Positions 15,883 through 44,967 of a DNA stretch of 50,971 bases are shown piece after piece. Made by a program: the position numbers and the translations under genes. Every line of letters begins with the position of its first letter. Positions within the stretch are counted from its first letter, which is position 1. Source of the stretch: an uncultured Candidatus Saccharibacteria bacterium (GTDB taxonomy: Bacteria; Patescibacteriota; Saccharimonadia; Saccharimonadales; Saccharimonadaceae). The DNA is taken from positions 1 through 50,971 of the forward strand of contig CAYIQY010000001.1 in assembly GCA_964365665.1 (NCBI GenBank), read 5' to 3'. The notes under the pieces were generated by a model that was not told where the DNA came from, searched no databases, and saw only the letters and a list, made by a program, of their open reading frames with translations.

Positions 15883-15957
15883 TGGCTGGGGCGGAGGGAT
15901 TCGAACCCCCGAATGTCGGCACCAAAAGCCGATGCCTTACCACTTGGCGACGCCCCA
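15883..15957 (-). tRNA. tRNA-Gln (anticodon UUG), CCA encoded
   Basis: The reverse complement is UGGGGCGUCGCCAAGUGGUAAGGCAUCGGCUUUUGGUGCCGACAUUCGGGGGUUCGAAUCCCUCCGCCCCAGCCA. It folds as a cloverleaf with a U1-A72 pair, anticodon stem UCGGC/GCCGA, loop UUUUGGU and a TPsiC loop UUCGAAU. From memory it is nearly collinear with E. coli tRNA-Gln. Confidence 0.9.
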
Positions 15958-31120: not shown

Positions 31121-32260
31121 ATGAAAACCCGCATCGAAATCGACACCAAGACATTTATCCGTTTTTGGCTAGTAGTGGTAGGGTTTATACTGGCATTTTT
31201 CGTTATTATCAGCGCGCAGACAGCACTTATTATTCTGGGCATAGCGTTTTTCCTCGCCTTAGCACTTAACCGTCCCGTTAGCGCGCTCGCCAATATTCTG
31301 CCCGGCAAAAGCCGAGCCGGCGGCACAGCGATTGCTTATATCATCGTCATCGTACTACTTGGCACCTTTTTGTTTCTTGTTGTCCCACCGGTGATTGAAC
31401 AGTCCGCAAAGGTTGCCGAATCAATACCTTCATTAATCGATCAAGTGCAGACACAATGGCATGGCCTATCAAGCCTCGCCCAACACTATGGCCTGGAGTC
31501 GCAAGTTAACCATGCACTGGATTCGATCAAGCAAAACGCATCTAGCTGGGCCGCCAACTGGGCGACTAACGTCGGTAGTAGTGTCGTATCGAGTGTCGGA
31601 TCACTCTTCGGTTTCTTTACGGCGGCGCTTCTAGTATTAGTCTTGTCGTTTTTGATGCTCATCGAAGCGCCACTTTGGCTAGGGCGTATCTGGGGAATCT
31701 ATAACGACCAAGAGCGTATGGAAAACCACAAAAAACTGGCAACTCGTATGTATAATGTCGTCACCGGCTATGTCACTGGCCAGTTGGCGGTATCGGGTCT
31801 TGGTGCGTTTTTTGCTGGTTTGACAGTGTTTATTCTCAGCTGGGTGTTCAATGTGCCGCACAATCTTGCTTTGCCTGCAGCCGCAATCGCCTTTTTGCTA
31901 TCACTCATCCCAATGTTCGGAGCGACGATCGCCGGAGTTTTGATTTGTATCCTCCTGGCATTCAATGACGTGACCGCGGCGCTTATATTTGCTGTCTACT
32001 TTGTCATTTACCAACAGATCGAAAACAACTTTATTTCGCCTACGATTCAGTCCAAGACGGTTGAGTTGTCGGCGCTTGCCGTACTCGGTTCAGTCACGGT
32101 CGGTCTGTATTTATTCGGTATCGCAGGTGGTATCATCTCGATCCCAATCGCTGGATGTGTAAAAGTATTACTAGAAGATTATCTTGAACGCGCCAAACTT
32201 CAGCGCAAGAAGAGTGGTAATCTGGTTCATAAACTAGCCAAATCAATCGAAAAAGCATAA
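31121..32260 (+). CDS. AI-2E family transporter (PerM/YhhT-like)
   Basis: 379 aa, about 8 TM. Family-typical layout including ...GQLAVSGL..., LIPMFGATIAGV and QQIENNFISP. Confidence 0.8.
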   Translation: MKTRIEIDTKTFIRFWLVVVGFILAFFVIISAQTALIILGIAFFLALALNRPVSALANILPGKSRAGGTAIAYIIVIVLLGTFLFLVVPPVIEQSAKVAESIPSLIDQVQTQWHGLSSLAQHYGLESQVNHALDSIKQNASSWAANWATNVGSSVVSSVGSLFGFFTAALLVLVLSFLMLIEAPLWLGRIWGIYNDQERMENHKKLATRMYNVVTGYVTGQLAVSGLGAFFAGLTVFILSWVFNVPHNLALPAAAIAFLLSLIPMFGATIAGVLICILLAFNDVTAALIFAVYFVIYQQIENNFISPTIQSKTVELSALAVLGSVTVGLYLFGIAGGIISIPIAGCVKVLLEDYLERAKLQRKKSGNLVHKLAKSIEKA

Positions 32261-32270
32261 AACAATCTCA

Positions 32271-32802
32271 GTTCTTGTCTGACCAAGAACCAAGTCACTT
32301 CTTTTCGTGTCAACGAAAAGAAGCAAAAGGTTCGTGACGGCTTCACGTCGCGGCGCAATGAAACAACTTGTCCTCTTGGGCGTCTGCGGAACTCGCGCCC
32401 TGACATATCAGGGGCTCAAACAGTCCTCGACACGCCACGATGCCAAGTTGTTCCATTACCCGGCCGCTGCAGATGTCACACTGGAAATAAATGTATTTCA
32501 ACGCGCCGCAGGCGCGAATAACAACAAATCACCTCATCGTGACCCCTGCAGCCAACCGAGGGCGCTGGCAACAGAAAACCGGAATCATTTGCGAGGACTG
32601 TCAAAATCAAATAACTAAAGAAATGGATTTTGACTTCCCGGAGGGAATTCCGCAGCAACCGGTTTTCTGCTGTCAGAGACCACGGCTTGGTGAAGCCGTC
32701 ACAGAGTTTTTTGTTTCTTTTTGACGGTTCAAAAAGAAAGCCTTTTGGTTCTTGGGCACAAAAGAACATTAAGCACTTTGCTACTTTGGTGCCACAAAGT
32801 AG
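32271..32802 (+). ncRNA. large structured element, copy A (candidate novel ncRNA or structured MITE; transcribed strand unknown)
   Basis: Flanking hairpins at 32271-32290, 32298-32323, 32714-32739, 32748-32767 and 32781-32802. Closing helix GTGACGGCTTCAC(32334-32346)/GTGAAGCCGTCAC(32690-32702). Internal helices are listed in the findings. A diverged inverted copy lies at 38409-38880. Tracked ORFs here are short and overlap in several frames. Confidence 0.5.
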
Positions 32803-32805
32803 GGG

Positions 32806-34182
32806 TTATTTGTATTCCCAAACAGTGCCATGTGCCGTATCTCGTACGACGATGTTTTCCTTGGCGAGTTGATCACGGAGCTCGTCTGACTTATTCCAGT
32901 CTTTTGCTTCGCGGGCCTGCTCACGTTTGCGGATTAGGGCTTTTTGTTCGTCATTAATGTCATAGTCCAGCAGATCAATTCCTAAGCTATCACGAACAGT
33001 GAGGAGTGTTTCTCGTGATGGCATGGCACCGGCAGCTTCGATTTGGTTAAAATACGCATCAATCTTTGCGATGGCATCAGGGGTGTCGAGATCATTTCGA
33101 AGTGATTCCAATATCTCTTCTGAAATATCCGGCTGATCATTTGTCAGTACTTCAAGCTGCCATCTGCGATTGAACATCGCGCGCCAGTTGTTCAGGTGGT
33201 TCTGGGCGGCTTCGAGGATTTCCCAAGTAAAGTTCCCCTCGGTACGATAGTGTTTACTGAGCACTAATAATTTGAAAGCTTGCAGGTCGTAACCTTTGTC
33301 TTTGATATCCTGCAATGTATATATATTGCCCAGACTTTTACTCATTTTAGTTCCGTCTACTTTGATGTGGTTGGCGTGTAACCAAATATTACTGAAGCGT
33401 TTGCCGGTGACGGCTTCTGTCTGCGCGATTTCATTCGTGTGGTGAACCGGGATGTGGTCGATACCCCCGGTATGGATGTCTATTTGATCACCTAATAACT
33501 CACGAGCCATGACGCTGCATTCAAGGTGCCAGCCTGGGAACCCTGTACCCCATGGACTACCCCATTCCATATCTCGGTTTTCGGCGGGGTCAGAGAATTT
33601 CCATACTGCGAAGTCGGTCGGGTTCTTTTTGCCGGTGTCCGCGACGCGGGCGCCAAACTGCAATCCTTTTATGTCTAAACGAGCAAGTTTGCCATAGTCG
33701 GTCAGCTTGCTGGTATCGAAGTACACACCGTCTGTAATGGTGTATGTAAACCCCTTGGCTTCAAGCTCTTTCACAAAATCAATCTGTTGGGGAATGTATT
33801 CGGTAGCGCGCGGCATATGGTCGGGGCGGACAAGTCCCAGCTGGTTGTAGGCTTCATCATCGGCGATAGCTATATATTTGTCGGCGACTTGCCACGCGGT
33901 CATACCCTCACTGAGAGCACCCTTGAGCATCTTGTCTTCACCGGCATCTTCGTCGCTTGTCAGGTGACCAACATCGGTGATGTTCTGTACACGATTAACC
34001 TCATAACCGCTGGCGCGTAACGTACGAACCAAGACATCCCAATAGATATAACTGACCCAGTTACCGATATGCGGTTGGCTATAAACCGTCAGGCCGCATG
34101 TGTATATGCTCACCTTGTTATCGTCGAGCGGTTTCAACTCGTCGGTGTTTCTCGTCAGCGTGTTATGAAGTTTGATTGTCAT
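32806..34182 (-). CDS. cysS: cysteine--tRNA ligase
   Basis: HIGN motif (QPHIGNW) and KMSKS motif (TKMSKSLGN). 458 aa. Confidence 0.95.
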   Translation of the reverse strand: MTIKLHNTLTRNTDELKPLDDNKVSIYTCGLTVYSQPHIGNWVSYIYWDVLVRTLRASGYEVNRVQNITDVGHLTSDEDAGEDKMLKGALSEGMTAWQVADKYIAIADDEAYNQLGLVRPDHMPRATEYIPQQIDFVKELEAKGFTYTITDGVYFDTSKLTDYGKLARLDIKGLQFGARVADTGKKNPTDFAVWKFSDPAENRDMEWGSPWGTGFPGWHLECSVMARELLGDQIDIHTGGIDHIPVHHTNEIAQTEAVTGKRFSNIWLHANHIKVDGTKMSKSLGNIYTLQDIKDKGYDLQAFKLLVLSKHYRTEGNFTWEILEAAQNHLNNWRAMFNRRWQLEVLTNDQPDISEEILESLRNDLDTPDAIAKIDAYFNQIEAAGAMPSRETLLTVRDSLGIDLLDYDINDEQKALIRKREQAREAKDWNKSDELRDQLAKENIVVRDTAHGTVWEYK

Positions 34183-34187
34183 ATTCT

Positions 34188-35177
34188 TTAGTTTTCTTCT
34201 TGATACATTCGTATGGCCTTGTCGGTAGCATCAATTAATTCTTTGACAATTGTATCGTAGTCTTCGTACGCACGAAAGCCAGATGCGTATTTGTGGCCGC
34301 CGCCGCCGAAAAACCCTGCGACTGTTTCGGCAATTGGGATATTGGCGCGCAGCTTGCCGGTGATTTTGCCGTCAGGGTATGTTTTGATCGCAACGCCGAT
34401 TTGAACACCTTCAACTAATCGCATTTCGTCGAGCACCAATACACTTGGGTTGTACTGATCACTGTATTTTTGGATATCTTCCCATGGGATGTGGACAATA
34501 GCTAGTTTGCCATCCAATAGATATTCGATACGGCCGATTAATTCGCCTTTGTAAGCCAAAATCTCTGGTGATTTCTTCATGAACTCACGGCGGCGTTCTT
34601 CGATGACGGAATTATGCGCGCCGAGTTCGGTCAATTTGCCCGCGACAAAAAAGGCATTCGGCGTGACATTTTGCGTTGTCAGCCCCAAGCTGTCACTCAT
34701 GATAGCGATCAACATATCTTCGGCCGCCTGCGCACTGATCGCCCAGCCGTTGTCGGACGCCAATTTGTAGATAATCTCGCTGGTCGCCACGGCATCTTCG
34801 CCTAGCATTGTGTGGTCGAACGTTAGGTTAGAATCGGTTGTATGATGGTCGATGACCAAAACCGGATGTGATTCCAGAAAGTGCCGTACACCAGACGTTT
34901 CGAGGACTTTGGTGATCAATACGTCAGCAGCAGTATCGACGATAATTGCCAGGTCAGCGCTTGTGTCAAAATCAGTCACTACCCTGTCCCATCCATTGAT
35001 ATAGCGCATATATTTGGGGATTTCAACGGGACAATACAGGACGATATCTTTGCCTAGGTCGCCCAGGATTTCTTCGAGCGCAAGCGAACTACCCAAACTA
35101 TCGCCGTCAGGGTTTTCGGCCTGAATGACAATTATTTTTTTGGCATCAGTAATCAGTTTGGTAGCGGTATTGTACAT
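34188..35177 (-). CDS. nrnA: DHH/DHHA1 phosphoesterase, NrnA-like oligoribonuclease/pAp phosphatase
   Basis: DGDSLGS, DTAAD, IDHH and DHHA1 GGGGHKYASG. TGaTACAAT lies 7 nt before the ATG. Confidence 0.75.
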   Translation of the reverse strand: MYNTATKLITDAKKIIVIQAENPDGDSLGSSLALEEILGDLGKDIVLYCPVEIPKYMRYINGWDRVVTDFDTSADLAIIVDTAADVLITKVLETSGVRHFLESHPVLVIDHHTTDSNLTFDHTMLGEDAVATSEIIYKLASDNGWAISAQAAEDMLIAIMSDSLGLTTQNVTPNAFFVAGKLTELGAHNSVIEERRREFMKKSPEILAYKGELIGRIEYLLDGKLAIVHIPWEDIQKYSDQYNPSVLVLDEMRLVEGVQIGVAIKTYPDGKITGKLRANIPIAETVAGFFGGGGHKYASGFRAYEDYDTIVKELIDATDKAIRMYQEEN

Positions 35178-35215
35178 TTAATCTATTGTATCAGAGGTAT
35201 CCCAGATAGAATACA

Positions 35216-35244
35216 TTGACAAATATAAGTAAAAGTAGTATAAA
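35216..35244 (+). promoter_or_regulatory. sigma70-like promoter of peptide cassette 1
   Basis: TTGACA (35216-35221), a 17-nt spacer, and TATAAA (35239-35244). Confidence 0.65.
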
Positions 35245-35323
35245 TTAAACATAACCTTTGGGTTACGTAAGATTGAAGGCTGATCCAAATTCACCAGTAC
35301 CACTTCCCTGAGAGAGTGATGAA

Positions 35324-35476
35324 ATGAATAACATCATACGTGTTGCTGTTGGAACACCAGTCGTCGTACTATTGGTTGGAGTGGCGGAAAAGTACCAGGA
35401 ACCAGTACTGTTGGTGCCTGCTGCCTGGATAACGGTAGTCGTTATACGTAGCGTTATCGCTGCCTTTCGCAAGTAG
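35324..35476 (+). CDS. small hydrophobic peptide 1 (50 aa: MNNIIRVAVGTPVVVLLVGVAEKYQEPVLLVPAAWITVVVIRSVIAAFRK)
   Basis: Own promoter and terminator, and predicted to have two hydrophobic helices. Not in the ORF track (under 60 aa). The antisense 69-aa ORF 35263..35472 lacks expression signals. Confidence 0.45.
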   Translation: MNNIIRVAVGTPVVVLLVGVAEKYQEPVLLVPAAWITVVVIRSVIAAFRK

Positions 35477-35510
35477 CACTGCCCGCCTACGGATCAAGCT
35501 TACACAGAAA

Positions 35511-35545
35511 GCCCCTCGCCTCACGGCAGGGGCTGATTCTTTTCT
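35511..35545 (+). terminator. rho-independent terminator of cassette 1
   Basis: GCCCCT(C)GCC/GGCAGGGGC stem with a UCAC loop, then TGATTCTTTTCT. Confidence 0.7.
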
Positions 35546-35551
35546 ATGACA

Positions 35552-35580
35552 TTGACAAATATAAGCATATGTAGTATAAT
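35552..35580 (+). promoter_or_regulatory. sigma70 consensus promoter of peptide cassette 2
   Basis: TTGACA (35552-35557), a 17-nt spacer, and TATAAT (35575-35580). The surrounding 30 nt are nearly identical to the cassette 1 promoter. Confidence 0.7.
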
Positions 35581-35637
35581 TAATTTATAGTCACAATCGT
35601 GGCTCGTAAGCCTGGTTCTATATTCAAGGAGAAGAAA

Positions 35638-35778
35638 ATGAAGACGAAAACGATCGTTGTGATCGTGCTCGTAATTCTGGCAGTGGCCTGCGTAGGCTGG
35701 GCACTTACCCCTGGCAATCACCAGGCGGGGTTCCTGGCAGCAATACCACTCTCCATCATCTGGGTGATGAATCAATAG
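35638..35778 (+). CDS. small hydrophobic peptide 2 (46 aa: MKTKTIVVIVLVILAVACVGWALTPGNHQAGFLAAIPLSIIWVMNQ)
   Basis: An AAGGAGA SD lies 7 nt upstream. Has its own promoter and terminator. The antisense 87-aa ORF looks spurious. Confidence 0.5.
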   Translation: MKTKTIVVIVLVILAVACVGWALTPGNHQAGFLAAIPLSIIWVMNQ

Positions 35779-35804
35779 GAACAAAGGATCAAGCTTACAC
35801 GGAA

Positions 35805-35836
35805 CCCCCGTCTTCGGATGGGGGTGATTCTTTTTT
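35805..35836 (+). terminator. rho-independent terminator of cassette 2
   Basis: CCCCCGTC/GATGGGGG stem with a UUCG loop, then TGATTCTTTTTT. Abuts the recR stop codon. Confidence 0.75.
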
Positions 35837-36449
35837 ACAGGAGTCGTCGGCCTTCGAGGGCGTGGGACAGTGTGATTTGATCGGCGTATTCCAGGTCGAC
35901 TCCAACAGGGATACCGCGAGCCAGACGAGACATCTTGACTTCAATACCGGCGTCTTGGATCTGGCGCTGCAAGAATAATGCTGTTGATTCGCCTTCGACA
36001 CTGGCATTGGTCGCGATAATCAGCTCGACGACTTTATCATCGGTCAGGCGTTTCATGAGTTCGGGAATATGTAATTGTTCGGGCGTGACGCCGTCAATCG
36101 GGCTGATTGCCCCACCTAATACATGATAGGTTCCGTGGAACTGCCCTGTTCGTTCCAATGACACGATATCAAGCGGTTCTTCGACGACGGCAATCGTCGT
36201 ACGATCCCGTGAAGGGTCGCTATATAGCGGCGATACGTCCTGATTGGCGTCGATCAATGCAAACGTTATTGGACATGATTTGACGCCTGTATGAAGCGCT
36301 GTCAGGCTATGCGCTAGCTTGTCGGTTACATTTGGTTGCGCCTTCAACAAATAATACGCATAGCGTTCTGCTGTGCGTGCTCCGACGCCTGGCAAGCGGC
36401 CAAGCTCGTCGATAACGTCGAGCAAAGCCTTGGGAAGAAGGCCGCTCAT
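35835..36449 (-). CDS. recR: recombination protein RecR (zinc-finger cysteines not conserved)
   Basis: N-terminal HhH LGRLPGVGARTAERYAYYLL. Toprim-like core (TIAVVEEPLDIVSLE, ELIIATNASVEGE). Confidence 0.85.
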   Translation of the reverse strand: MSGLLPKALLDVIDELGRLPGVGARTAERYAYYLLKAQPNVTDKLAHSLTALHTGVKSCPITFALIDANQDVSPLYSDPSRDRTTIAVVEEPLDIVSLERTGQFHGTYHVLGGAISPIDGVTPEQLHIPELMKRLTDDKVVELIIATNASVEGESTALFLQRQIQDAGIEVKMSRLARGIPVGVDLEYADQITLSHALEGRRLL

Positions 36450-36452
36450 AAA

Positions 36453-36755
36453 CTACAGTCCGAGGTTGCCTAGTCCGCCCATCAGCGGTTTCATTTTTTC
36501 TGCGGCGATTTCCTGGGCTTTTTGCATGCCATCTCGGATTGCGATTTCGATGTTGTTTTCCAGATCTTCGATGTCGTTCAGGTCAACATAATCAGGGTTG
36601 ATAGTCACCTTTTCGACTTTCAGTTCGCCGTTAATCGTGATTTCGACCGCTGGATCATCGTCCTCGCCACCAGCAACAACGACAACCTTTTGTTTTTTCA
36701 AATCTTTTTGCGCTTTACGCAAGTCATTTAGCATCTTCATTTGGTCAAAAGCCAT
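36453..36755 (-). CDS. ybaB: YbaB/EbfC family nucleoid-associated protein
   Basis: 100 aa. MLNDLRKAQKDLKK...ITINGELKVEKVTINPD...AIRDGMQKAQE. Shows the classic ybaB-recR linkage. Confidence 0.85.
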   Translation of the reverse strand: MAFDQMKMLNDLRKAQKDLKKQKVVVVAGGEDDDPAVEITINGELKVEKVTINPDYVDLNDIEDLENNIEIAIRDGMQKAQEIAAEKMKPLMGGLGNLGL

Positions 36756-36932
36756 ATTGGTTCTCCTTCATAATAGTACCCAGTTTTCTCTTTGGCACAT
36801 TTCGGGCGTTGCCCTGTGCTCCGATGCTCACGTACTTGTGCGTACGCTGCGCTTCGTTGCTCGGCCACCACTCCGAACTGCACTCAAAGAAAAAACTGCT
36901 TCGTTTCCTGATACAATCATACATTATTTTGT

Positions 36933-38378
36933 CTACTTTTTATAGATATAGAACCGATCGCTGTCTTTGCTGTCGTCGGTTGTGATGATCCGTTCGATAG
37001 TGGCGCCCGAAACATTGTTATGCGCGGCACGCGTAGCAGCAAATTCGCCACTTGCCGGTGCCGAGGACATGATAATCGGCGGATTCGTGTGGTCATAACT
37101 TGTCAGTGCAATATAAAACGGTTTTTCGTCAGGGCTGACGACAAGTTTGGTGATATTTTTTGCCTTTATGTGGTCGTTATACAGTGTGACATCATGACTA
37201 AAACTAGATGCCGTGACAGGGTCGTAACGATAACCGTCAAAATAGCGGTTAAGGCCTGACACCACCAACCCACCCACCAAAATCGTCAACGGAACAACTC
37301 CGACAAATCTGGCATATGGGTTGAGTGGGAATAGATTGTACCACGATCGCAGGAGATAGCTCAGTCCGCTTGCGAGGAGGAGTAGCAAAGGAACAAAGGT
37401 GACACTTGTATACGTCGGGTTGATGATGAGTACGGGTAGTAGCAAAATCACCCATGCGGTTAACGTATAACTTCGTGCCGTGTAGCGTATGGTAAATAGT
37501 TGCCATATACCGAGGAGAATCAGCGCGATTGATCCTAGTCCTAGAACGGGCGTCATGAGCGTGCCACTTTGCGGCCATATAAAGTTAAGATATTGTTGCG
37601 ACAATGTTTGCAGGTTTGCAATGATATTCGGCGGCCAGGTTGACGGTGCTCCGAGTAACTGAAGGCCTAAATTGGGATAACGGTAAATCAAATAGCCGAG
37701 AGGCGCCATTATGACGAGACTGAGGAGCGATAGAAGTGCCAGGTGGGTCCGTGGCATTCTCTTGAGGACATAGCGTACATGCGGATGTAACAGGCCTGCG
37801 CTACAAATCGCCAGTACGAGGTAAATGCTCAGCGGTGTGTAGAGACTCATTGGCATGACAATAAAAAACAGCAATTTCCAGAATCGTTTGTGACGCTGCG
37901 ATGTCGTGATCATTGTGGCGGTTAGCAGTAGCCAGATCGGCCACATGATGAATGTAATGCTGGCCATGCCAGATTGGGCAACATATAAAAACTGGCCGGT
38001 CGAAATCATAATGACGGTCGCCAGTAATGCGATATTCGGGCGGAACCAGCGTCGGAGTAACAGCACTGCGCCGATACCCGCAATGAACGCACAGACCATT
38101 GCTGAGTATTTGAACGCAAACAGACTCGGGCCGAACACATCCATTCTTATTCGCTGAGATGCGTAAAACGGCAGATTGGGAATCGCGAGTGTACTGAGGT
38201 CTTGTTTGTCGATGGCCGCCGTCCTCACAAAACTTGTGATCTCGCCTTGGCTTAGGCCACCCGGTACATACAAACCAGCCATGATCAAGAGGCCGATGAA
38301 TGTAAGGATAATGATGCCGTAACCGATTTGGTAACGGAAACGATAGGATAAAAAATTAGTAAAAAGCAGTTTTGCCAT
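36933..38378 (-). CDS. polytopic membrane protein, GT-C (ArnT/PMT-like) glycosyltransferase candidate
   Basis: 481 aa with about 11 TM and a soluble C-terminal domain. The family call rests on topology only. TGcTATAAT lies 8 nt before the ATG. Confidence 0.4.
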   Translation of the reverse strand: MAKLLFTNFLSYRFRYQIGYGIIILTFIGLLIMAGLYVPGGLSQGEITSFVRTAAIDKQDLSTLAIPNLPFYASQRIRMDVFGPSLFAFKYSAMVCAFIAGIGAVLLLRRWFRPNIALLATVIMISTGQFLYVAQSGMASITFIMWPIWLLLTATMITTSQRHKRFWKLLFFIVMPMSLYTPLSIYLVLAICSAGLLHPHVRYVLKRMPRTHLALLSLLSLVIMAPLGYLIYRYPNLGLQLLGAPSTWPPNIIANLQTLSQQYLNFIWPQSGTLMTPVLGLGSIALILLGIWQLFTIRYTARSYTLTAWVILLLPVLIINPTYTSVTFVPLLLLLASGLSYLLRSWYNLFPLNPYARFVGVVPLTILVGGLVVSGLNRYFDGYRYDPVTASSFSHDVTLYNDHIKAKNITKLVVSPDEKPFYIALTSYDHTNPPIIMSSAPASGEFAATRAAHNNVSGATIERIITTDDSKDSDRFYIYKK

Positions 38379-38408
38379 TTCGTTTTATTATAGCAGATAA
38401 AGGTTAAT

Positions 38409-38880
38409 GTACTTTGTGGCGCCAAAGTACCAAAGCGCCTTCCTTTTTACCGATAAAAGGAAGCAAAAACCTCGTGACGGCTTCCCTCCTCCGGGATGTA
38501 TTCGTCGAAAAAGTCGGTTGCTGCGGAATTCCCTTCGGGAAGTCACGGATATTGATTTTAGTTATTCATCCGTGACAGGTCCTCGCAAATGATTCCGACT
38601 TTTTCGCCTCACCCATCTCGGGTCGGTGCAGGGGTCACAGTTAATTGATTTTATTGTTTTCGTAGCCATTGTGACATCTGCAGAATCCGGATAAATTGAG
38701 GATTGCTTATTTGGCGTATCGAGGACTGTTTGAGCCCCTGATATGTCAGGGCGCGAGTTCCGCAGATACCCAATTAAGCAATTCGAAATTTTTACCGCGA
38801 TTCGAAGCCGTCACGAGGTTTTCGCTTCCTTTTATCGGTAAAAAGGAAGGCACTTTGGTTCTTTGGTGCCACAAAGAACA
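38409..38880 (-). ncRNA. large structured element, copy B (inverted relative to copy A)
   Basis: About 75-nt imperfect terminal inverted repeats (38411-38484 vs 38804-38880). Closing helix CCTCGTGACGGCTTC(38470-38484)/GAAGCCGTCACGAGG(38804-38818). The 48-nt block 38719-38766 is the exact reverse complement of 32383-32430. Confidence 0.5.
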
Positions 38881-38886
38881 TTGAGC

Positions 38887-40233
38887 TTATTCGTGTCGCT
38901 TGTCGAGTGACATAAATCGCAGTCGTTCTGGGTGGAAGTACAGTTCGATCTTGCCGGTTGGTCCGTTACGATGTTTAGCGATAATGATATCGGTGATATT
39001 TTCGCGGTCGGTGTCGGGGTTGTAATAGTTTTCGCGGTAGATAAACATGACGATGTCGGCATCTTGCTCGATTGACCCTGATTCACGCAGATCAGCCAGT
39101 TGCGGAATCTGCGGGCTACGCGATTCAACGCTACGTGACAACTGTGAAAGCGCGATGACTGGTACGTTCAGTTCACGTGCGAGCAGTTTCAACCCACGGC
39201 TGATCTCACTCACCTCTTGGACGCGATTGCCATCACTGCGGCCACTAGCCTGAATCAGCTGCAAGTAGTCAACTACCACCAGCCCTAGTGGTGCCTGGTG
39301 GGCTGCACGGCGGGCTTTGGTACGCATTTCCAGCACAGTCAGGCCTGGAGTGTCATCGATAAAGATCGGTGCTTCGGCCATCTCGCCTGATGCTTCGGAC
39401 AGTTTGCTGAAATCCTCGTCGCTGAGGTTGCCGGTACGGATATTCCAGGCATCGACACCACTGACATCAGCCAGCATACGGTCGATCAACTGTTCTTTGC
39501 TCATTTCCAGGCTAAAAAACAGCACGGATTGTTTATTCAGCGTGGCGACGTTATATGCCAGGTTGGTCACAAGTGCGGTTTTACCCATTGCTGGTCGCGC
39601 CGCGAGGATGATTAGGTCGCTGCGTTGCAGTCCGGCCGTCATGTTGTCCATGTCGCGGTAACCTGTTTTGACGCCGCGGAGGGCGCCTTTGTTGCGGTGC
39701 ATTTCTTCCAGACGGTCAAAACTTTCCAGCAGAATTGATTCAAGACTGGCCAAATCTTGTTTCAGGCTTTGGTCGCTGACTGAACACAGTTCGGCTTCGG
39801 CTCGTTCCAGTAGTTCTTGGACATTGAAATCTTCGTCATAACCGAGTTCCGAGATATCGCCGCTGGCTTTGATCAGACGCCGGCGGACGGCCTTTTGAGC
39901 GACCATATCTGCGTAGGTCGCACCATGGGCAGCGGTCGGAACGTAATTTGTCAGTTCGGTCAGGTATGCCGACCCTCCGATCATGTCCAAATGATCTTTC
40001 TTTTTCAATTCGTCGGTCAGCGTTAACAAATCAACAGGTTTGTGATGTTCATATAATCGCATCATGGCATCAAAGATCGTCGCATGACGTTTGTCATAAA
40101 AATCTCGGACAGTGACTAGTTCGGAGACATCAGCCAACACTTCCTCGTCAATCAATACCGCACCGATCAAACTCATCTCGGCATCGACATTTTGTGGGGG
40201 GATTTTGGCGTCTATGGACTTTTTAGCGCTCAT
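38887..40233 (-). CDS. dnaB: replicative DNA helicase DnaB
   Basis: 448 aa. PQNVDAEMSLIGAVL N-domain and Walker A ARPAMGKTA. RecA-like C-domain with LVVVDYLQL. Confidence 0.95.
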   Translation of the reverse strand: MSAKKSIDAKIPPQNVDAEMSLIGAVLIDEEVLADVSELVTVRDFYDKRHATIFDAMMRLYEHHKPVDLLTLTDELKKKDHLDMIGGSAYLTELTNYVPTAAHGATYADMVAQKAVRRRLIKASGDISELGYDEDFNVQELLERAEAELCSVSDQSLKQDLASLESILLESFDRLEEMHRNKGALRGVKTGYRDMDNMTAGLQRSDLIILAARPAMGKTALVTNLAYNVATLNKQSVLFFSLEMSKEQLIDRMLADVSGVDAWNIRTGNLSDEDFSKLSEASGEMAEAPIFIDDTPGLTVLEMRTKARRAAHQAPLGLVVVDYLQLIQASGRSDGNRVQEVSEISRGLKLLARELNVPVIALSQLSRSVESRSPQIPQLADLRESGSIEQDADIVMFIYRENYYNPDTDRENITDIIIAKHRNGPTGKIELYFHPERLRFMSLDKRHE

Positions 40234-44735: not shown

Positions 44736-44933
44736 AGAAACTCCTTGATTTAGTTGTTTGATTCGATCCAAATTGTCAATGTGCACATTACATTCCATCT
44801 AGATAATGTGAGAAAAGAAAAAGTCCTTGATTCTCGCATTATCAAAGACTTCTTTCGGTTGAAACGGTGGATAGTTTGTTTCACCTCGGTAGCTGATTAA
44901 GTCTTTCGACCGCTACTGTCTTTGGTAATGTCT
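44736..44933 (-). promoter_or_regulatory. ribosomal protein L10 leader-like 5' UTR with attenuator hairpin
   Basis: About 200-nt leader downstream of a strong promoter. Contains a GUC-GAAA-GAC hairpin nested in an AGUAGC/GCUAC helix. An AGUCUUUGAU/AUCAAGGACU hairpin (fwd 44822-44850) is followed by UUUUUCUUUUC. Confidence 0.5.
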
Positions 44934-44939
44934 ATAGAA

Positions 44940-44967
44940 AGTATAGCAAATGGAGGTGAAATGTCAA
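44940..44967 (-). promoter_or_regulatory. sigma70-like promoter of rplJL
   Basis: On the minus strand, TTGACA (fwd 44962-44967), a 16-nt spacer, and TATACT (fwd 44940-44945). Confidence 0.6.

Follow-up and report, generated by a model that had tools for sequence, protein, structure and literature searches.

The window, by which we mean the whole stretch of 50,971 nucleotides that was analysed, is a Saccharibacteria contig from the candidate phyla radiation (CPR), and two of its intergenic spacers hold the diverged copies, here called A and B, of a foldback, imperfectly palindromic non-coding repeat that is like a miniature inverted-repeat transposable element (MITE). Read from the sequence, copy A extends from about 10 nt past the stop codon of a gene for an AI-2E/PerM protein to a few bases short of the stop codon of cysS, and copy B from the stop codon of dnaB almost to the conserved -10 box of the following gene, which is of the PMT_2 family. 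Both lie inside 6.6 kb. The best homologues of the AI-2E/PerM protein, with 80% identity and below, are found in Candidatus Saccharibacteria and Saccharimonadales, by which a host among the Firmicutes is rejected, and the gene order TGT, AI-2E, then cysS, DHH, recR and ybaB is kept in three relatives with 75–79% protein identity; the PMT_2-family gene and dnaB also follow in the one relative that was read further. Copy A is absent from the orthologous AI-2E/cysS spacer (300–390 nt) in all three relatives, and copy B from the orthologous dnaB/PMT_2 spacer (553 nt, with a modest folding z-score of -2.9) in the single relative checked. The sequence in these spacers is unrelated to the element, so that copies A and B should be seen as lineage-specific fillers of whole intergenic spacers, and a conserved non-coding RNA (ncRNA) at a syntenic site is ruled out for both spacers (from one relative in the case of dnaB/PMT_2).

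A first-pass annotation of the window had described copy A as a highly structured element of about 0.5 kb that aligns block-wise with the reverse complement of copy B. This alignment is reproduced here, with a mean column identity of 78% between A (32271–32802, plus strand) and the reverse complement of B (38400–38888), and it includes a block of 48 nt that is identical in the two copies; a 33-mer out of this block occurs exactly twice in the window, with 0 occurrences expected. The extent given earlier for copy B, 38409–38880, is slightly too short as the arms reach 38400 and 38888. The two copies are separated by 1-nt indels and a protein search with the longest internal open reading frame (ORF) gave no homologue, and the element is therefore non-coding, as first supposed. 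It was also right that no gene for a reverse transcriptase, TnpB or IscB lies beside it.

When each copy is aligned with its own reverse complement, dyad symmetry is seen along the full length of both A and B. A covariance model of the core motif described below (R1) has four matches in the window, two in each copy, on opposite strands and convergent. Each copy thus consists of two convergent units of roughly 200–250 nt around a central hairpin, and the layout of a unit is an A/T-rich hairpin, called T (a CTTTT/AAAAG stem, then CAAAAC), a spacer of about 57–59 nt, and a long hairpin tipped by the core motif M (Table 1). The outer left hairpin of A has its counterpart in B as GTTCTTTG/CAAAGAAC, with a paired 1-nt indel. 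Terminal inverted repeats had been reported and are real, since the two 85-nt arms of B are 92% complementary and the arms of A match at 59 of about 76 positions. On the plus strand the second motif copy of A corresponds to the blocks 'CGAGGAC ... TTCCGCAG' of the first-pass annotation.

The core motif M of about 50 nt is the most conserved block of the element; that it is shared across phyla had been missed at first, as had the Saccharibacteria host. In its type 1 form the order is helix II, the strand h5 (CUGCGGAACUCG, 12 nt), helix I with a variable closing loop, the strand h3 (CUCAAACAGUCCUCG, 15 nt) and helix II again, and both strands are nearly invariant. An inner helix GGA(A)C/GUCC, formed by G5, G6, A7 (A8 bulged) and C9 with G9, U10, C11 and C12, divides h5/h3 into two conserved internal loops. 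Among 48 distinct sequences both sides change in 13 of the 18 proposed pairs in the helices of M, and 85.7% of the cells are paired, compared to 72.5% in shuffled data (none of 500 shuffles reach the observed value) and 32–54% with slid partners. M thus shows both the covarying helices and the conserved unpaired nucleotides of a structured RNA motif. Within the conserved strands the pair G6:C11 is changed to C:G in a betaproteobacterial subfamily (L018, L020, L075, where L-numbers denote motif loci), and G12:C1 to C:G in L050. Even where the element around it has diverged beyond alignment between lineages, h5 has hardly changed.

M also exists as a natural circular permutation, type 2, with the order helix I, h3, helix II closed by a loop, h5 and helix I. 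This form is found in four lineages, namely the Planctomycetes (more than 50 copies), L010, a deltaproteobacterium (L024, L069) and Omnitrophota (L079, L091). Since both connectivities keep the same two strands between two helices, M should function as a single strand that is folded, as permutation would not be tolerated by a binding site in double-stranded DNA. In the Planctomycetes the type 2 copies are often in tandem with a spacing of 190–260 nt and with a 12-nt minisatellite. In metagenome-assembled genomes (MAGs) of Planctomycetia and Singulisphaera (L032 90–480, L004, L053, L061, L066, L098) each of the tandem permuted units comes after 2–5 copies of this minisatellite, CAGCCACGGANA, and one of these MAGs has more than 25 loci of the permuted motif. 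Most of the tandem copies have an A.C mismatch in helix II, which corresponds to a G.U pair on the other strand.

The distribution of the motif was determined in a collection with one genome per species, searched with an exact 19-mer of h3, GGGGCTCAAACAGTCCTCG. It was found at 107 loci, where about 4 are expected by chance in our own estimate, and three of them (L037, L054, L089) look like chance matches. The h5 strand CTGCGGAACTCG, which was outside the query, is present with at most two mismatches near h3 in 101 of the 107. The carriers amount to around 40 genomes and about 100 loci, and the motif is often multicopy. Within the CPR they are Parcubacteria, Patescibacteria, Saccharibacteria (including a complete genome) and Uhrbacteria, within the Planctomycetes Isosphaeraceae and others, and within the betaproteobacteria Rhodocyclaceae and Comamonadaceae, among them the isolates Azospira oryzae DSM 21223, Azospira sp. 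I13 and Aquabacterium parvum B6. Other carriers are gamma- and deltaproteobacteria, Nitrospirae, Binatia, Desulfobacterales, Elusimicrobia and Omnitrophota. No copy was found in IMG/VR (exact scans), in GenBank phages or in the PLSDB plasmids; blastn with copy A and the motif consensus gave no real match that would speak for a phage or plasmid origin, as the lone match in Ensifer is an ordinary terminator-like hairpin. Exact-sequence and keyword searches of the literature found no description of the motif.

The composite architecture is shared as well. In the Parcubacteria MAG 0813_bin18 the order is a T hairpin, about 90 nt, M on the plus strand, about 220 nt, M on the minus strand, about 90 nt and a second T hairpin; these composites of 430–450 nt occupy at least 10 loci as near-identical copies, and several are located at contig ends. 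The arrangement T...M> <M...T, with a length of 430–560 nt, is seen again in other CPR genomes. Two such composites in a Saccharimonadales MAG, L049 3940–4470 and L083 2200–2760, share a 100% identical core of 320 nt, and their T hairpins are diverged yet compensated, CACACTTTG/CAAAGTGTG versus CTACTTTGG/CCAAAGTAG. This mosaic pattern suggests gene conversion or recombination between copies. The inverted motif copy of L049 and L083 carries indels. Convergent M pairs are also present in L018 (from a betaproteobacterium), L022 and L073, and all 10 pairs seen are convergent. T hairpins homologous to those of A occur in other CPR bacteria and in betaproteobacteria, in general as a CTTTT/AAAAG stem, then (C)CAAAA(C/G), and T is located 55–60 nt upstream of h5 in the CPR elements, including three of the four units of the window; in betaproteobacteria the distance is mostly 66–77 nt, and 120 nt in one copy. 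Between lineages conservation is limited to T, M and their spacing, and the remainder does not align. Most members of the family are solo units of 60–200 nt. Unit and composite together constitute a family that is spread over many phyla, patchy, multicopy in some genomes and without a gene of its own.

Two further features were seen outside the T–M arrangement. Betaproteobacterial and Nitrospirae loci (L017 7300–7560, L020 6960–7230, L018 3400–3640, L019 5500–5740) have recurring modules, CCCTGCG[C/G]TGCTC... upstream and GCGCTGCTCGGCG downstream, which may constitute another conserved internal loop at a more distal position along the rod. In bin18 (L016 7330–7825, L022 1080–1650, L059 6230–6780) the T hairpins do not mark the limit of the palindromy, which goes on into arms rich in CT (ACTCCTCC...) and in GA (...GGAGGAGT), similar to anti-Shine-Dalgarno and Shine-Dalgarno sequences.

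Table 1. Position of the two copies, their hairpins and their motif copies in the window.
Feature	Position	Strand	Remarks
Copy A, whole palindromic composite	32271..32770	+	between the stop codons of AI-2E/PerM (32260) and cysS (32806)
A outer left hairpin GTTCTTG-TCTGAC-CAAGAAC	32271..32290	+	partner 32748-32767
A left T hairpin CTTCTTTTCG-TGTCAA-CGAAAAGAAG, then CAAAAG	32298..32329	+	59 nt upstream of h5
A closing helix, 5' strand GTGACGGCTTCAC	32334..32346	+	pairs with 32690-32702, 13/13
A canonical core motif M	32370..32443	+	covariance model 57.1 bits, E 2.7e-15
Parts of A motif M: h5 CTGCGGAACTCG; helix I hairpin; h3 CTCAAACAGTCCTCG	32384..32395; 32396..32414; 32415..32429		flanked by helix II
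A central hairpin CTGCAGATGTCAC ... GTGACCCCTGCAG	32467..32551	+	stems kept in A and B; variable loop, 27 nt longer in A
A second, diverged motif copy (CTGCGGAATTCC ... ACAGTCCTCG)	32578..32669	-	covariance model 25.5 bits, E 1.4e-5
Inside A second motif copy: hairpin with loop AATAACTAAA; mini-hairpin TTCCC-GGA-GGGAA; outer stem	32600-08/32626-34; 32635-32647; 32573-82/32659-68
A closing helix, 3' strand GTGAAGCCGTCAC	32690..32702	+
A right T hairpin TTTCTTTTTG-ACGGTT-CAAAAAGAAA	32714..32739	+	preceded by GTTTTTTG
A outer right hairpin GTTCTT-GGGCACAA-AAGAAC	32748..32767	+
Orphan B-type terminal module GCACTTTGCTACTTTGGTGCCACAAAGTA (29 nt)	32773..32801	+	abuts the right end of A; 90-93% match to both ends of B
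Copy B, whole palindromic composite	38400..38888	-	fills the spacer between dnaB (stop 38887) and the PMT_2-family gene (start 38378)
B 5' terminal arm: outer hairpin, T hairpin, closing-helix strand	38804..38888	-	85 nt, 92% complementary to 38400-38484
B canonical core motif M	38706..38779	-	covariance model 61.8 bits, E 9.5e-17
B diverged inverted motif copy	38507..38599	+	covariance model 22.7 bits, E 1.1e-4
B 3' terminal arm	38400..38484	-	85-nt arm pairing with 38804-38888

The orphan module next to copy A looks like the remnant of another element end, which suggests a nested or adjacent insertion, or an end-to-end recombination between elements.

Both copies fold far better than dinucleotide shuffles, A with -217 kcal/mol (z -10.1) and B with -247.5 kcal/mol (z -22.1), and RNAalifold on the A/B pair gives 120 common base pairs of which 18 are changed on both sides, in accordance with the description of a highly structured element with compensatory changes. 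When the minimum free energy (MFE) structure of one copy was applied to the other, 23–24 doubly changed pairs were kept and 12–13 broken (64–67% kept, where we estimate that random bases would keep about 37%), and among the singly changed pairs 21–22 were broken and 8–10 kept. The compensation between A and B is thus real and exceeds the random expectation but is not universal, and the statement that the differences preserve pairing is true only for a part of them. All the helices that had been listed were located in A, and all the corresponding strings in B: the closing helix pairs at 13/13 positions, the hairpin 32600–08/32626–34 at 9/9, the stem 32573–82/32659–68 at 10/10, GTCCTCG/CGAGGAC at 7/7 and the CTGCAG..GTCAC helix at 11/13, and CTGCGGAA/TTCCGCAG is present with CTGCGGAA at 32384–32391, one base off the position first given. 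The pairs CTGCGGAA/TTCCGCAG and GTCCTCG/CGAGGAC had been taken as invariant long-range helices. With two convergent motif copies in each element, such complementarity is built in and automatic, and as these helices never vary they give no covariation evidence; all the helices that do covary between A and B are local hairpins or terminal arms.

No Rfam family accounts for the element. With Rfam 15 at the gathering score neither copy has a match, and the only matches in the window are a ribosomal protein L10 leader (44808–44943, minus strand, 63.7 bits) and one tRNA (15886–15957, minus strand), so the element, in which no hallmark motifs of known RNAs had been noticed, remains without a family after the scan that had been proposed as a check. 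Scans of 32000–39200, 32260–32810 and L016 7340–7825 at E≤10 gave only chance matches of the snoRNA/miRNA type, and 15 motif-bearing loci have no family on the motif at the gathering score. The threshold was not reached by RNase P, tmRNA, SRP, 6S, group I and II introns, OLE, GOLLD, ROOL, HEARO or raiA, nor by the hammerhead, twister, twister-sister, pistol, hatchet and hairpin ribozymes. A likeness to the hairpin ribozyme (ACAGUCCU in h3; UGACAGUCCU and GGAAGUCA in the variant copy of the window) is kept only as a lead, as there is no match to the Rfam Hairpin model and the register of the one internal covariation does not fit loop A. Promoter- and terminator-like sites are no more frequent in the element than in shuffled sequences, and the T hairpin is followed by CAAAAC and not by a U run, which rules out an intrinsic terminator or promoter.

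The neighbouring genes do not point to a common function. In low-GC genomes the solo copies sit in short spacers, and of the 19 intergenic ones 16 are sense to both neighbours, 2 have only the downstream gene in the sense direction, and a single one is antisense. Genes located downstream of the motif encode MurD-like, FemAB, S1, ComEC, RNase HII, RRF, SmpB and L9 proteins, a permease and a methyltransferase, and since these are unrelated housekeeping functions a riboswitch or a gene-specific leader is ruled out. A bidirectional 3'-end element for convergent genes is also ruled out as the composites occur in every gene arrangement. Clustering of the ORFs within 2.5 kb of 114 motif sites gave no associated protein, only spurious repeat ORFs and unrelated housekeeping genes. 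In one Patescibacteria MAG (L080 6516–7583) a solo motif hairpin is located directly upstream of smpB, with tmRNA and a tRNA coming next; as other genomes have different genes downstream of the motif, the adjacency is probably coincidental.

The closest comparison is with the bacterial palindromic repeats and MITEs such as ERIC/IRU, Correia, the Rickettsia RPEs and REPINs. These are likewise short, non-coding, imperfect palindromes with inverted ends, located in intergenic regions and often within transcription units, folding to long hairpins when transcribed, and multicopy in some genomes but missing from close relatives. Copies A and B agree with MITEs in their terminal inverted repeats and in being small, non-coding and variably present members of a multicopy family. 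In contrast to these repeats, the present family conserves an asymmetric hairpin centre and not the ends, this centre is near-invariant across phyla and is also found circularly permuted, and no target-site duplication, and within 2.5 kb of the motif sites no cognate insertion sequence (no recurrent ORF family at the 114 sites) or RAYT gene, was found. To our knowledge the known palindromic repeat families are each confined to one genus, family or order. Inverted doublets, which are a REPIN-like trait, do exist among the motif copies; the conserved part is however an asymmetric loop of 12 + 15 nt and no RAYT or Y1 gene is near the copies, so they are not of the REP/REPIN-RAYT type (REP, repetitive extragenic palindromic). 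Nor do they fit a PATE (palindrome-associated transposable element) derived from IS200/IS605, which would be free of terminal inverted repeats and have similar hairpins at its left and right ends on the same strand; here the whole element is a palindrome with long inverted arms, and T does not resemble M.

Other comparisons are more distant. The large RNAs OLE, GOLLD, ROOL, HEARO/omega-RNA and raiA are also several hundred nt long, heavily base-paired and sometimes tied to mobile DNA; unlike them the element has no covariance-model match, its fold is palindromic and modular without a conserved large tertiary architecture, and only about 50 nt and one hairpin are conserved between lineages. Hammerhead and twister ribozymes, and the tandem hammerhead repeats of satellite type, share with M a core of some 25–30 near-invariant nt between covarying helices, natural circular permutations, a multicopy occurrence with tandem arrays as in the Planctomycetes, and no gene association. 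M differs in having no sequence or model match to any known class and in its rod-like topology, where two internal loops stand in place of a three-way junction or double pseudoknot, and its likeness to a self-cleaving ribozyme extends only to the circular permutation, the tandem arrays and the conserved core. Integron attC sites, the ends of IS200/IS605 and REP-RAYT systems have, like M, a conserved fold with specific unpaired bases and a strand-specific orientation, with an enzyme acting in trans. Unlike M, attC sites and IS ends show little sequence conservation, and the M family, for which no partner enzyme was found, has none of their signatures (AAC/GTT triplets, the GTAG tetranucleotide, hairpins at the left and right ends of one strand). 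The central conserved region of viroids is similar as a rod where two opposed conserved strands form an internal loop, with variable flanking helices and inverted repeats, but this is an analogy only, since the M sequences are chromosomal bacterial DNA without evidence of circular RNA or replication.

The whole is best explained by a selfish palindromic repeat family that carries M as a functional folded core, with RNA as the favoured state, an explanation which we hold with middling confidence from comparative analysis. The family would spread as selfish repeat DNA and ride into neighbouring transcripts, and M should be its functional part, acting as a folded single strand. As RNA, M might be a compact rod that recruits a universally conserved cellular machine, or it might be self-processing, and the palindromic composite would offer one sense motif whichever strand is transcribed. 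That M acts as RNA rather than as folded single-stranded DNA is favoured by the sense bias (16/19), the position inside transcription units, the circular permutation and the satellite-like tandem arrays. Strands that stay invariant when their surroundings have diverged beyond alignment would also suggest an invariant partner or catalysis, and not a co-evolving transposase. A more specific proposal is that M represents a new class of functional RNA, either a self-cleaving or self-ligating ribozyme or a ligand of RNA polymerase, the ribosome or a processing RNase, as the selfish payload of rod-like and foldback repeats that have spread through the CPR, Planctomycetes, Proteobacteria, Nitrospirae and others; this we consider unlikely, but if true it would make the M repeats a bacterial equivalent of satellite repeats that bear ribozymes, or of a conserved central region like that of viroids.

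Several observations weigh against the explanation of a selfish repeat with a core acting as RNA. G:U and A:C mismatches number 19 versus 14 in the arms, 8 versus 14 in the outer stems and 4 versus 2 in helix I; they show no strand asymmetry and so do not point to a strand-specific constraint on RNA. The stems are long and near-perfect (25–40 bp), as is typical of DNA inverted repeats. Composites are found in all three arrangements of flanking genes, convergent, co-directional and divergent. At the ends of A and B no direct repeat can be recognised as a target-site duplication, and the precise ends of the bin18 elements could not be defined since the palindromy extends beyond the T hairpins. 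Part of the invariance of h3 follows from the use of an exact-match query, and in L091 (Omnitrophota) G6 is changed to C without compensation. Only two copies, A and B, are known of the window's own subtype; a metagenome scan with the subtype-specific 19-mer GGGAATTCCGCAGCAACCG gave 16 chance matches in high-GC coding sequence. Finally, the sense bias could equally be explained by insertion into the lagging-strand template, which is used by IS200/IS605 elements.

The last point leads to the alternative that survives best, a mobile element acting as single-stranded DNA, whose T and M hairpins are recognised by a trans-encoded HUH/Y1 transposase, a RAYT-like enzyme or a recombinase, with the RNA structure being incidental. 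It would account for a multicopy and patchy element that is absent at orthologous sites, for the palindromy of the whole element with inverted arms of 75–85 nt, for the long near-perfect stems with no excess of G:U, for the bin18 copies at contig ends, and for the mosaic copies and the orphan terminal module beside A, and the strand bias would be compatible with targeting of the lagging-strand template. The recognition of a fold with conserved unpaired bases is the way in which attC sites and IS608 ends operate, and M could be read likewise. However, no transposase or recombinase recurs near any copy, the motif is missing from the phage, plasmid and viral collections, and its 27 nt are near-invariant across phyla, unlike transposon ends that co-evolve with their enzyme. 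IS200/IS605 elements moreover are without terminal inverted repeats and have both hairpins on one strand, and there is no evident REP signature of the GTAG type. Taken together this makes the single-stranded DNA element possible but somewhat doubtful.

The first-pass annotation had instead regarded each 0.5-kb copy as one large ncRNA gene, with long-range pseudoknot helices between the two halves. The extreme folding z-scores, the 18 compensatory pairs, the empty Rfam result, a sense motif that is co-oriented with the upstream gene in both copies, and a related architecture of similar size in other CPR genomes agree with such a gene. It is nevertheless improbable, because the long-range helices never vary and are what any two inverted copies of a motif would produce, the covarying helices are all local or terminal, nothing is conserved between lineages outside T and M, relatives do not have the element at orthologous sites, most family members are short solo units, and promoter or terminator signals do not rise above the background. 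A single pseudoknotted fold is also not supported by the element itself, which is palindromic throughout and whose MFE folds use local hairpins. The outcome that had been named as contrary to a large ncRNA, a recently mobile MITE, is borne out in part, by the absence from the spacers of relatives, by the inverted repeats and by the near-identical multicopy kin in another CPR genome; a target-site duplication could not be shown. Very improbable, finally, is a neutral remnant, that is decaying palindromic junk in which the motif is retained only via recent horizontal spread: the patchy distribution, the degenerate second motif copy in the window, L022, L049 and L073 and the many broken pairs among those singly changed between A and B would fit, but h5 is almost unchanged where the surrounding element no longer aligns, the helices of M covary, the permuted forms retain both strands, and CPR genomes are small and retain little junk DNA.

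Between the two copies, at 35195–35840 on the plus strand, the window has another pair of related sequences, which lie in tandem between the DHH-family gene and recR and are each about 300 nt long. Common to both are a consensus promoter, TTGACA-17-TATAAT (35552–35580, with a near-copy at 35213–35243), a 5' leader and an intrinsic terminator (35518–35533 and 35804–35825), and their bodies differ, with small ORFs of about 50–59 aa at 35324–35476 and 35599–35778. Relatives have a single gene of 68–82 aa at this site, and the units look like paralogous genes for small proteins or small RNAs.

The repeats described here are a previously unannotated family of structured elements, of a kind, the palindromic intergenic repeats of bacteria, that is already known. 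If a selfish repeat with a functional folded core is the right explanation, it would be an undescribed repeat family with a core of about 50 nt that is conserved at nearly every unpaired position from the CPR to Planctomycetes to cultured betaproteobacteria. Such conservation together with covariation and natural permutation is otherwise known from ribozymes and from RNAs that dock on universal machinery, and not from ordinary MITEs. The short motif is present in cultivable hosts (Azospira, Aquabacterium) and is thereby directly testable, and the covariance model of the core would permit masking and labelling of the family in place of spurious ORF calls. The repeats also concern the biology of the CPR, where palindromes of 0.5 kb that take up entire spacers beside dnaB and cysS are tolerated in genomes of about 1 Mb.

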